Sequence record: DRR723986_11816 | Strand: one strand, 5' to 3' | DNA: 34,252 nucleotides | Shown here: positions 31,716 through 34,252 of the stretch, one piece after another | Numbering within the stretch: the first letter of the stretch is position 1 | Layout of the letters: every line of letters begins with the position of its first letter | Program-made: the position numbers and the translations under genes | Notes under the pieces: generated by a model | Databases searched by the model: none | What the model was told of the DNA's origin: nothing | Seen by the model: the letters and a program-made list of their open reading frames with translations, nothing else

Positions 31716-32710
31716 CCAAAGGTCCGGTTTTGATTGATCTTGAGGATGAGGCGCAAGAGGCCCCCCAAGTTGCAGATGCACCACCGGTGCCGGATCTCGT
31801 GGCGCCAACCGGGCAGGCCATGCAGATGGCCGCGCGGGTCGCTGCGCGCAAACCATCGGCCCTGTCTAAATGGTTCTGGGGATTGGCAATGGCGGTGCTC
31901 GGGGCGATGGTCTCGGTCGCGGCGTGGGATTTCGCCAATTCGTTGATCCTGCGGATGCCGATCTTGGGTTGGGCCATGACCGGGTTGCTGGGCGCGTTTG
32001 TTGTGGTTTTGCTGCTGATTGCGATCCGCGAAATTGCTGCGATTGGTCGACTGAGCCGTATTGATGGCGTGCGGCAGGCCGCTGACACAGCCTTGGCCGA
32101 TCAAAGTTTGGATCAGGCCCGCGCGGTGATGAAGCGTCTTGATGCGTTGTATTCCGGGCGAGAGGATACGCGCTGGGGACGCGAACGGCTGGCGGAACGC
32201 GCATCAGATCAATTTGATGCCGTTGCGTTGATGGATCTTGCAGAAAATGAACTGCTGGCCCCGCTGGATGCGGCGGCCCTGCGTGAGGTCGAAGTCGCCG
32301 CCCGGCAAGTTGCAACAGTAACGGCCCTTGTGCCATTGGCCTTGGCGGATGTGGCCACGGCGCTGACGGCGTCGCTGCGCATGATCCGGCGTATTGCTGA
32401 GATTTACGGGGGCCGGGCCGGGTTCTTGGGGAGCTGGCGCCTGACCCGTGCTGTTTTCACACATTTGGTGGCGACGGGTGCCGTAGCGGTTGGGGATGAT
32501 TTGCTCGAACCGATCCTTGGGGGGTCGATCCTGAGCCGTTTGTCCCGTCGGTTTGGCGAAGGGTTGGTTAACGGGGCGCTGTCGGCGCGCGTTGGGATCG
32601 CCGCGATGGAAGTGTGCCGGCCCTTGCCGTTTTCTGAGCGTCACCAACCCTCGGTGCGCAAAGTGATTAAAAACGCCCTTGGCGGATTGTTCTCGAAGGG
32701 GTCAGAATAA
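31712..32710 (+). CDS. ycjF: YcjF family membrane protein
   Basis: Two N-terminal TM helices, LAPLD, RRIAEIYG, LSRRFGEG..NG..SARVG.AAM..CRPLPF. Confidence 0.92.
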   Translation: MTKGPVLIDLEDEAQEAPQVADAPPVPDLVAPTGQAMQMAARVAARKPSALSKWFWGLAMAVLGAMVSVAAWDFANSLILRMPILGWAMTGLLGAFVVVLLLIAIREIAAIGRLSRIDGVRQAADTALADQSLDQARAVMKRLDALYSGREDTRWGRERLAERASDQFDAVALMDLAENELLAPLDAAALREVEVAARQVATVTALVPLALADVATALTASLRMIRRIAEIYGGRAGFLGSWRLTRAVFTHLVATGAVAVGDDLLEPILGGSILSRLSRRFGEGLVNGALSARVGIAAMEVCRPLPFSERHQPSVRKVIKNALGGLFSKGSE

Positions 32711-33124
32711 TACGGGCGGTGCGTCTTTGGGTTGGCGCATCGACACGATCCCGGTGCGGAACCCTTCGCCAATCCGTTGGGCCAGAACGGCCCATTTGCG
32801 GCCGATATCATGGGGCAACTCTTCGGATAGCACTTGGTAAAACAGGTCGAGCCAATCGGGGAAATGTTCGGCCTTGATGTCGGGGCGAGACACGTGAACG
32901 CGCATGGGGTTGCCGTTATAGCTGCCCTCGCGCAGGATCGCATTGCGCCAGAACCCGGCGATCTTTTCCTCGTGCTCAGGCCAATCCGTGACATGGTTTG
33001 CAAACACCGGACCCAGCACAGCGTGGGTTCGAATGCGGCCATAGAACACCGCGACGACGCGGTTTATCTCTTCTGCCGATATGTCGAATTTGCGCAACGG
33101 GTTGGGCAGGGGCTGATCGGTCAT
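32702..33124 (-). CDS. Group III truncated haemoglobin
   Basis: VAVFYGRIR.H..LGPVF, W.EH..KI..FW, Y.GNPMRVH, HF..WL.LF. Start ATG 33124; the longer track ORF overlaps the VIT1 gene. Confidence 0.92.
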   Translation of the reverse strand: MTDQPLPNPLRKFDISAEEINRVVAVFYGRIRTHAVLGPVFANHVTDWPEHEEKIAGFWRNAILREGSYNGNPMRVHVSRPDIKAEHFPDWLDLFYQVLSEELPHDIGRKWAVLAQRIGEGFRTGIVSMRQPKDAPPVLF

Positions 33125-33263: not shown

Positions 33264-33974
33264 ATGCAGGACCACAGCCACGAGCCAGAGGATATCGCGC
33301 AGCGGATCGGAACGGCGCAGGGGCATGGGGTTCTGCGGGATGTAGTGTATGGGGCGATTGATGGGTCTGTGACAACGTTTGCGATTGTGGCTGGTGTTGC
33401 TGGGGCAGGTTTGTCGCCTTTTATTATTGTCGCTCTTGGGCTGGCGAATGTGTTCGCTGACGGGTTTTCCATGGCCGCAGGTAATTATTCAGGAACCAAG
33501 GCCGAGTTGGACAATATCCAACGCCTGCGCGCGATAGAGGAGCGTCACATTGCGCGATACCCCGATGGCGAACGTCAAGAAGTGCGCGAGATCCTGAGCC
33601 AGAAGGGCCTGAGCGGTCAGGTTCTGGAGGACGCGACACAGGAAATCACGTCAGATCGCAACAATTGGATCCAGCTTATGTTGGATGGGGAATACGGCCT
33701 TGGGGGTGTTGACCCGCACCCTTTGCAGGCTGCGATGGCGACGTTTTTCGCCTTTCTCGTCGCGGGTATGATCCCGTTGGTGCCCTTTTTGTTGGGGCTC
33801 GAGGGTGCCTTTGCTTATTCGGCATGGATGACTTTGGGGGTGTTTTTTGCGATCGGTGCGTTGAAGTCGCATTGGTCGTTGGCGCCTTGGTGGCGATCTG
33901 GGGCGGAAACACTGGCTATTGGCGGGGTTGCTGCAGGCATAGCCTATGGTGTTGGGACTTTGTTCAATCAGTGA
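33264..33974 (+). CDS. VIT1/CCC1 family Fe/Mn transporter
   Basis: LRDVVYGAIDGSVTTFAIVAG, ANVFADGFSMAAGNY, Glu-rich cytosolic segment, G.IPL.PF. Confidence 0.93.
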   Translation: MQDHSHEPEDIAQRIGTAQGHGVLRDVVYGAIDGSVTTFAIVAGVAGAGLSPFIIVALGLANVFADGFSMAAGNYSGTKAELDNIQRLRAIEERHIARYPDGERQEVREILSQKGLSGQVLEDATQEITSDRNNWIQLMLDGEYGLGGVDPHPLQAAMATFFAFLVAGMIPLVPFLLGLEGAFAYSAWMTLGVFFAIGALKSHWSLAPWWRSGAETLAIGGVAAGIAYGVGTLFNQ

Positions 33975-34017
33975 ATTGTGCAGCCCAAGTAAACCAACCT
34001 GCGGCAACCGGGCCCTC

Positions 34018-34046
34018 TGGACGGGGTCGCAAACCCGGCCTATAAG
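34018..34046 (+). promoter_or_regulatory. Candidate sigma-70 promoter of the ileS leader
   Basis: TGGACG (34018-34023)-N17-TATAAG (34041-34046). Confidence 0.55.
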
Positions 34047-34056
34047 CCGACCCAAG

Positions 34057-34104
34057 ATGTTTGGTATGTCGATCATTATTCGAATTATAAACCCGGCGCT
34101 CTGA
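34057..34104 (+). CDS. Putative Ile-rich leader peptide MFGMSIIIRIINPAL
   Basis: ATG TTT GGT ATG TCG ATC ATT ATT CGA ATT ATA AAC CCG GCG CTC TGA: 5 Ile within 6 consecutive codons, ending 85 nt before ileS; hairpin CCCGGCG/CGCCGGG (34092-34120) overlaps its stop. Confidence 0.75.
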   Translation: MFGMSIIIRIINPAL

Positions 34105-34189
34105 TAGACGAGACGCCGGGCAAAGGTGTTTGAGAACTCGCGCCGACCCAAACCGTTCCCCTGATACGCTGATCCAAAGGACGCCACAC

Positions 34190-34252
34190 ATGTGCGCCGA
34201 CACTCCTGAAACGCCCGACTACAAATCCACGCTGAACCTGCCCAAGACCGAT
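34190..34252 (+). CDS. ileS: Isoleucine--tRNA ligase, N-terminus (partial)
   Basis: MCADTPETPDYKSTLNLPKTD matches the DYKxTLNLPKT N-terminal motif of bacterial IleRS; AAAGGA RBS upstream. Only 21 codons visible. Confidence 0.88.
   Translation, partial: MCADTPETPDYKSTLNLPKTD

Follow-up and report, generated by a model that had tools for sequence, protein, structure and literature searches.

The ileS gene at the end of the analysed DNA (34,252 nt of record DRR723986_11816, hereafter the window) is preceded by a short leader ORF and a hairpin which probably constitute an Ile-tRNA-sensing, ribosome-mediated attenuator without an intrinsic terminator. Rho as the output of this sensor was deduced from the C-rich tail of the leader and is put forward tentatively, at somewhat below an even chance. 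Judged from the comparisons below, the element is real and conserved and presumably translated; it is attenuator-like but does not possess the terminator of the classical type. Its conserved core, as read from the alignments, is the codon pair CGA-AUU together with the position of the hairpin, and the run of Ile codons is apparently a lineage-specific addition. A ribosome waiting at this pair probably reports isoleucine shortage.

The layout of the leader is given in Table 1. The features of the original prediction were all found by direct reading of the window: the promoter pair, the uORF with no Shine-Dalgarno (SD) sequence, its five Ile codons in six including ATA, the hairpin over the uORF stop, and the C-rich stretch before the ileS RBS with no U-tract or intrinsic terminator. 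A weak second hairpin (P2) and the fixed spacing between CGA-AUU and the first hairpin (P1) were added to them. The Ile codons follow in the order ATC ATT ATT (CGA) ATT ATA, and the stop codon TGA at 34102-34104 is followed by TAG. The transcription start would lie at about 34053-34054, leaving 3-4 nt before the AUG. Upstream, a VIT1-family gene occupies 33264-33974 and ends 43 nt from the -35 box. The downstream gene was identified as that of IleRS (Pfam tRNA-synt_1, E 7e-57, full-length copy in G001); G001 is the nearest genome, with 95% identity to the window over 989 nt. The terminator scan detected no intrinsic terminator in the leader and no U-tract after P1, and the Rfam scan of 33800-34252 at E up to 10 gave no T-box, the one weak match of 11.5 bits being unrelated.

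Table 1. Positions of the ileS leader features in the window.
Feature	Position	Strand	Remark or evidence
-35 box TGGACG	34018..34023	+	17 nt before -10 box
-10 box TATAAG	34041..34046	+	10 nt before ATG 34057
Leader ORF, 15 codons (48 nt), without SD	34057..34104	+	translation MFGMSIIIRIINPAL
CGA-ATT-A (rare Arg codon, then control Ile codon)	34081..34087	+	conservation
Hairpin P1, stop codon inside loop	34092..34120	+	folding, covariation
Hairpin P2, weak and family-specific, not followed by a U-tract	34125..34144	+	covariation, folding
C-rich, G-poor tail, candidate rut-like stretch	34145..34175	+	base composition
ileS Shine-Dalgarno AAAGGA	34176..34181	+	direct reading; AGGA in 80/94 loci
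ileS start, ATG 34190, gene runs off window	34190..34252	+	similarity to G001 copy

The ileS loci used for comparison were selected through similarity to IleS, independently of the motif. They comprised 29 loci from the relatives of G001 and 80 from named records, the latter mainly Rhodobacteraceae/Paracoccaceae; three copies near-identical to the window and one locus with no anchor were left out. The motif was present in 97 of the 106 loci (window and relatives). One of the nine motif-less loci belonged to a family member, five to the other family of the order and three to other families; L030, counted as motif-less at first, was later found to carry a variant element. The loci of this other family, all five of them (L022, L024-L027), were without the element directly before ileS. 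The family genomes, which represent nearly all genera by one genome each, matched the stricter pattern in 106 of 121 cases, compared with 1 match of the reversed control; in this count not every match was checked and the genomes, being kin, represent non-independent trials.

An in-frame ATG was found in 96 of 97 loci, compared with 16 and 3 in the other two frames. Its distance from the TATAAG-like -10 box upstream is 6-7 nt in 82 of 94 loci and 10 nt in four, the window included. Judged by this spacing only, the leader ORF appears to start leaderless in most family loci and near-leaderless in the window, which agrees with the near-leaderless uORF proposed at the outset. The -35 hexamer, 17 nt upstream of the -10 box, was TTTACC in 25 of 94 loci, TGGACG in 19, TGGACC in 16 and TTTACG in 10, the rest being rarer. 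The leader peptide was 16 aa long in 65 of 94 loci. The Ile run of the window is the sole 6-codon stretch with at least five Ile codons among 68,470 in its six frames. The corresponding six codons of the family loci (n = 94) contained 5 Ile in 42, 4 in 17, 3 in 17, 2 in 15 and 1 in 3. The predicted conservation of an Ile-rich uORF in relatives was thus borne out for the uORF and the hairpin but not for the full run.

The pair in the middle of the run was far less variable, CGA being present in 94 and ATT in 96 of 97 loci (one row was mis-anchored). CGA-ATT showed no synonymous change, in contrast to the neighbouring codons, which vary. In the collected ileS sequences Arg is encoded by CGA in 2.0% and Ile by ATT in 11.4% of cases. 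The remaining Ile codons of the leaders (n = 294) were ATT in 119, ATC in 114 and ATA in 61 cases, compared with an ATA share of only 0.6% in ileS. The A after ATT was kept in 97 of 97 family-level loci. The leader stop codon was kept as well, with TGA, TAA and TAG interchanging. CGA is read through inosine wobble; the 41 Rfam tRNA matches in G001 (91% complete) included no Arg(TCG), Ile(TAT) or Arg(ACG).

Three other roles of the conserved letters were considered and rejected. A nascent-peptide arrest leader of the SecM/RAPP type would keep its peptide motif under synonymous codon change; here codons and not residues are fixed, and Pro is absent in the CGCG-type stems and in L212 and L222. 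A tRNA T-loop mimic disagrees with the variation of the two bases before CGA. An anticodon-loop mimic disagrees with the P1 loop, which is constant only at the stop codon.

The fold energy of P1 in the window was -18.1 kcal/mol. Between the first base of CGA and the beginning of the hairpin the distance is 11 nt, and its stem was 10-12 bp long in 85 of 97 loci. In the covariation alignment, which held 66 of the 90 alignable loci, 97.1% of the P1 cells were paired and 5 of 10 pairs had double changes. Counted from CGA, the pairing probability was 0.03-0.04 at +4 to +7, 0.34 at +11 and 0.97 at +12. P2 was found in 77 of 94 loci, with an energy of -5.7 kcal/mol in the window, 93.2% of cells paired and double changes in 5 of 7 pairs; a T-tract of 5 or more followed it in 4 of the 77. 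For P1 and P2 together, 95.5% of cells were paired and 58 double changes were counted; none of the 500 shuffles came as high, and the slid controls stayed far below.

The consensus promoter scan, which demands T at -10 position 6, did not report the ileS leader promoter, and the whole 159-nt leader was not better folded than its shuffles (z -0.90). Both results would suit an ORF that occurs by chance in A/T-rich promoter DNA. The probability of this explanation is practically negligible, as the rarity of the Ile run among the 68,470 stretches, the frame lock and the recovery in family genomes against the reversed control all speak against it, and conservation together with covariation beyond all shuffles refutes it. 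The promoter and the hairpins are supported by conservation and covariation, not by the promoter scan or the whole-leader folding.

In bacteria the mRNA channel takes up 11 nt, counted from the first P-site base, and a stem-loop placed 11-12 nt from that base slows A-site tRNA binding, which one at 13 nt does not (PMC7282821). The length of the stem matters for this effect and the loop sequence little (PMC8861025). The stem length and loop of P1 and its 11-12 nt spacing to the P-site codon match the geometry of such A-site-blocking stem-loops, and likewise the frameshift stem-loops of dnaX and HIV gag-pol, with a stem of about 10-12 bp 11-12 nt from the P-site base and a loop (PMC7282821, PMC8861025). 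Unlike these, the ileS leader contains no slippery sequence and has no fixed frame relation to ileS, and at most a leader pause would be expected. The spacing of P1 is that of a stem which would abut a ribosome whose P site contains CGA and whose A site contains AUU. The 11-nt spacing marks the stall site but is equally what any attenuator needs for its hairpin to stay intact right beside a stalled ribosome, hence it is no proof of A-site blocking.

The sensing would proceed as follows. Transcription would start at the leader AUG or 3-4 nt ahead of it, and a 70S ribosome would initiate at this AUG. Once CGA occupies the P site and AUU the A site, P1 would stand exactly at the mRNA entry channel, and the slow codons and the hairpin together would produce a rate-limiting decoding step that needs charged tRNA-Ile(GAU); sensitivity would be raised by the additional Ile codons of roseobacters. 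At low Ile-tRNA the ribosome would wait, leaving P1 and P2 folded and no more than about 30 nt of C-rich RNA open, presumably too short for Rho loading, so that ileS would be transcribed. At ample Ile-tRNA the ribosome would melt P1, stop in its loop and leave, which would open about 80 nt of weakly folded RNA with a C-rich end; Rho would then end most transcripts before or early in ileS. The frame lock, the leaderless spacing, the choice of rare codons and the covariation of P1 were all counted for the sensor. Against this scheme, P1 would refold fast once the ribosome leaves.

The tail contained 37.7% C and 16.1% G with a mean length of 32 nt, and C exceeded G in 77 of the 77 loci with P2. 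Compared with control leaders, of which there were 15 only, C exceeded G in 91 of 92 loci versus 7 of 15, with skews of +0.43 and -0.02, respectively. A C-over-G unstructured stretch after the uORF, as in the Rho-dependent type of uORF, is thus present in the ileS leader. On the other hand, the tail is short and adjoins the ileS SD, and its low G content may just keep the RBS open.

A translational output of the same sensor was considered in parallel. According to it, P1 and P2 would keep the ileS start open, and a ribosome occupying the P1 5' arm would let the P1 3' arm take the P2 5' arm, whereupon the freed P2 3' arm would pair over the ileS AUG and codons 2-3. RNAalifold indeed predicts a helix between the P2 3' arm and the ileS start codon. 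The alternative helices were pairable in 95% of cells but had only 2 double changes, and 175-204 of 500 shuffles scored as high. A 4-bp 2:3 helix, the candidate antiterminator, was pairable in 93.9% of cells, with no covariation and a mean probability of 0.07-0.12. Constrained folding of the stalled and the stop state changed the RBS opening energy by a mean of -0.06 kcal/mol (27 up and 33 down of 91), and no switch in pair probabilities was detected in 74 loci. The structural switch that had been suggested originally thus gained no support from folding or covariation. Codon 2 of ileS is Cys in 86 of 94 loci versus 0 of 51 control genes, followed by a stretch of variable length. This agrees with pairing over the start and is left unexplained by the Rho model, but the Cys codon occurs with P2 (74 loci) and without it (12 loci). 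The distance between leader and ileS was spread evenly over the frames (35/31/28), which speaks against translational coupling and by which readthrough or frameshift coupling to ileS was rejected as well. In spite of the precedent of mycobacterial polycysteine leaderless sORFs (10.1101/834739), the translational output at ileS is regarded as quite unlikely. As a separate observation, ileS codons 1-4 (34190-34200 in the window) are complementary to both P2 arms, with no covariation found.

No common downstream fold was shared by the 22 distant ileS loci described below. With no U-tract, no shared fold and no RBS switch, the C-rich tail, which suits Rho, and the unpaired A/U-rich site, which suits RNase E, remain. 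In the latter case the stalled ribosome would cover an RNase E site at the control codon, and run-through would allow a cut in the A/U-rich stretch 5' of the stem, giving a monophosphate end and decay of the ileS message. Such an output requires no common downstream fold. It would account for conservation at the nucleotide level, including the invariant A after ATT in a stretch that is predicted to be unpaired. The RNase E sites of R. sphaeroides are AU-enriched at the cut (PMC6238624), and the Salmonella speF leader acts partly via RNase G (PMC6386406). However, the choice of rare codons accounts for these letters and for the preceding rare Ile codons as well, 12 of 41 distant elements have another base than A at +7, and the family-wide C-rich tail and P2 would have no role. 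Control by mRNA stability is therefore considered unlikely, and Rho is kept as the tentative output at ileS.

Outside the family, 137 ileS loci were chosen by protein, 86 class-wide and 51 from one order, which makes the set uneven. A short uORF containing an in-frame CGA-ATT was found in 40 of them. A loose class-wide pattern matched 67 of 201 genomes compared with about 45 for the reversed control; because of this noise, only copies with a real stem and an in-frame uORF were used. The strict pattern matched 12 of 38 genomes inside the class by hand count and 1 of 113 outside it, the latter with a poor stem. The distant loci contained 41 CGA-ATT pairs versus 7 other Arg-Ile pairs, and 22 of the 41 elements had a single Ile codon. 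The pairing started at +12 for the 26 CCCG stems and at +13 for the 15 other stems (eight of them with a CGCG-type base), so the position of the hairpin is kept despite another stem sequence. With the spacer left free, about 19 stems of at least 8 bp were counted by eye at the standard spacer and 2-3 over the eleven other spacers together, among the 150 of 427 matches listed. In eight loci of one genus with the CGCG-type stem (L357-L364), CGA-ATT is kept and the uORF is SD-led, not leaderless. In many ileS loci without the element ribF runs straight into ileS; in L164 the element precedes ribF of a ribF-ileS operon.

The genes behind the element were surveyed in 70 pattern loci and 7 more, about 14 of the 70 being dropped as chance for a weak stem or a missing uORF. 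True copies preceded ileS in 22 distant loci and a stand-alone ACT-like gene (about 95 aa) in 22 by motif, with a few more by eye. The ACT-like family (90-110 aa) is widespread. Its 20 members tested had no Pfam family and no PDB sequence match, and the exact look-up was empty; matches to the NCBIfam AHAS small subunit were weak (1-2 of 20 members, E 0.01-0.02). An HMGL-like gene follows the ACT-like gene in L112 and L146 and a PALP gene in L160, and PALP enzymes stand directly behind the element in L144 and L342. The HMGL-like protein would be a citramalate synthase and the PALP protein a threonine dehydratase. Together, ileS, ribF-ileS and the ACT-like, HMGL-like and PALP genes fit isoleucine control and were counted for Ile sensing. 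Two tandem elements precede the ACT-like gene in L172 and L173 (in the latter at 405 and 605, 200 nt apart).

In 12 of the 22 ACT-type loci (L112, L118, L133, L138, L148, L151, L152, L159, L162, L165, L177, L180) the hairpin loop contains no uORF stop, and the uORF overruns the next RBS and the start of the ACT-like gene, the ATG lying mostly at +79 after CGA. A ribosome past the checkpoint would cover that RBS, which suggests RBS occlusion as a translational output at these genes. The overlap counts against Rho there, and it shows that an output of this kind is available to the element, a point in favour of the translational alternative at ileS.

The element also precedes AAA_33 genes (L143, L147, L174, L181, L345, L346, two of them within the family of the window) and DUF6841 genes (L127, L149). 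These six and two copies, having no known link to isoleucine, count against the Ile reading. They would suit a non-specific role, in which a constitutive pause or a general sensor of elongation stress tunes or protects the message, or the site is bound by IleRS or another protein. The single Ile codon of 22 distant elements and CGA being nearly as fixed as ATT point the same way, as does the RNA of Caulobacter ileS, little changed by the medium (PMC4117421). However, the fixed codon is one for Ile, the main client is ileS, and the roseobacter copies add up to four further Ile codons enriched in ATA and ATT. An anticodon-like loop is opposed by the P1 loop, which keeps only the stop codon and that with TAA and TAG swaps. 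The non-specific role is accordingly held to be improbable, and isoleucine sensing is retained. In L174, the gene behind the small AAA_33 P-loop gene encodes a nucleotidyltransferase with an AadA C-terminal domain. As a guess, the AAA_33 copies might be linked to IleRS-inhibiting compounds.

A wider reading, possible though on balance doubtful, would make the element one portable, Alphaproteobacteria-wide isoleucine 'ribulon'. A frameshift-type stem-loop behind the weak CGA would let a single AUU gauge charged tRNA-Ile, with differing outputs (Rho or decay at ileS, RBS occlusion at ACT-like genes), and the AAA_33 genes would be informed of IleRS-inhibiting antibiotics. If true, the stand-alone ACT-like protein and the AAA_33 kinases would be tied to isoleucine status, and the element would be the feedback control that is missing so far for the IleRS of Alphaproteobacteria, no T-box having been detected at the ileS examined here. 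It would also be a natural conserved case of a leader peptide that may owe its sensitivity to the position of the hairpin, not to the number of codons.

Classical leader-peptide transcription attenuators are E. coli pheM-pheST, ilvL and thrL and the alphaproteobacterial trpL and ilvL, and E. coli tnaC is a case of uORF control through Rho. The ileS leader resembles the classical attenuators in having, ahead of a synthetase or biosynthetic gene, a short uORF whose cognate codons are often rare, and in the hairpin overlapping the uORF end. Unlike them, it has neither a U-tract terminator nor a supported antiterminator, and its conserved unit is one codon pair at a fixed distance from the stem instead of a codon run. 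The alphaproteobacterial trpL is leaderless too (PMC10117765). Similarly to the Salmonella speF leader, where translation of the uORF orf34 steers Rho termination or decay without a U-tract (PMC6386406), the output would need no intrinsic terminator. In speF and tnaC, however, the amino acid and the gene are different, and the C-rich stretch of ileS lies 65-95 nt past the stall site and would not be directly covered. The mycobacterial 'Cys ribulon' shares with the element a leaderless sORF, the absence of an intrinsic terminator and the occurrence ahead of several genes belonging to one amino acid; in mycobacteria, a duplex that would sequester the RBS is blocked by the stalled ribosome, whereas at ileS such a switch is unsupported and one codon is often enough (10.1101/834739). 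The ileS T-boxes of Actinobacteria and Firmicutes control the same gene by the same presumed signal, uncharged tRNA-Ile (PMC1262725). In contrast to a T-box, the ileS leader is presumably translated, is about 135 nt long and has no Rfam T-box match.

Comparative attenuator surveys, reportedly those of Vitreschak 2004 and Lopatovskaya 2010, could hold a prediction for this leader. In the available parts of the literature searched no mechanism was described for an alphaproteobacterial ileS leader, nor was an isoleucine or ileS leader mentioned in those of PMC4833913, PMC10117765 and PMC13285730, whose supplements may list one. The original prediction named no characterised case for Roseobacter ileS. 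The ORF itself is not entirely without report, as a leader CDS of ileS, CCNA_03934, is annotated in C. crescentus (PMC4117421). According to ribosome profiling it is a leaderless ORF of 45 nt with a triphosphate 5' end, and it ends 78 nt before ileS, compared with 48 nt and 85 nt for the leader of the window (PMC4117421). In the available part of that report CCNA_03934 serves only as a negative control and is given no mechanism. Its putative homology with the leader of the window is one of position, size and leaderless start, and in one further order (81 genomes, 51 ileS loci) no locus had the exact Caulobacter dimensions and gene order. The RNA density of the Caulobacter leader was 6-8-fold that of ileS (829 versus 138 and 1185 versus 148 RPKM), with ileS itself at 138 in rich and 148 in minimal medium; the high leader values may derive from the 5'-end peak described there (PMC4117421).

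At the distal side of the VIT1-family gene, and divergent from it, an ORF of 140 aa lies at 32702-33124 on the minus strand. It gave no Pfam match at E 0.01 and may be globin-like.
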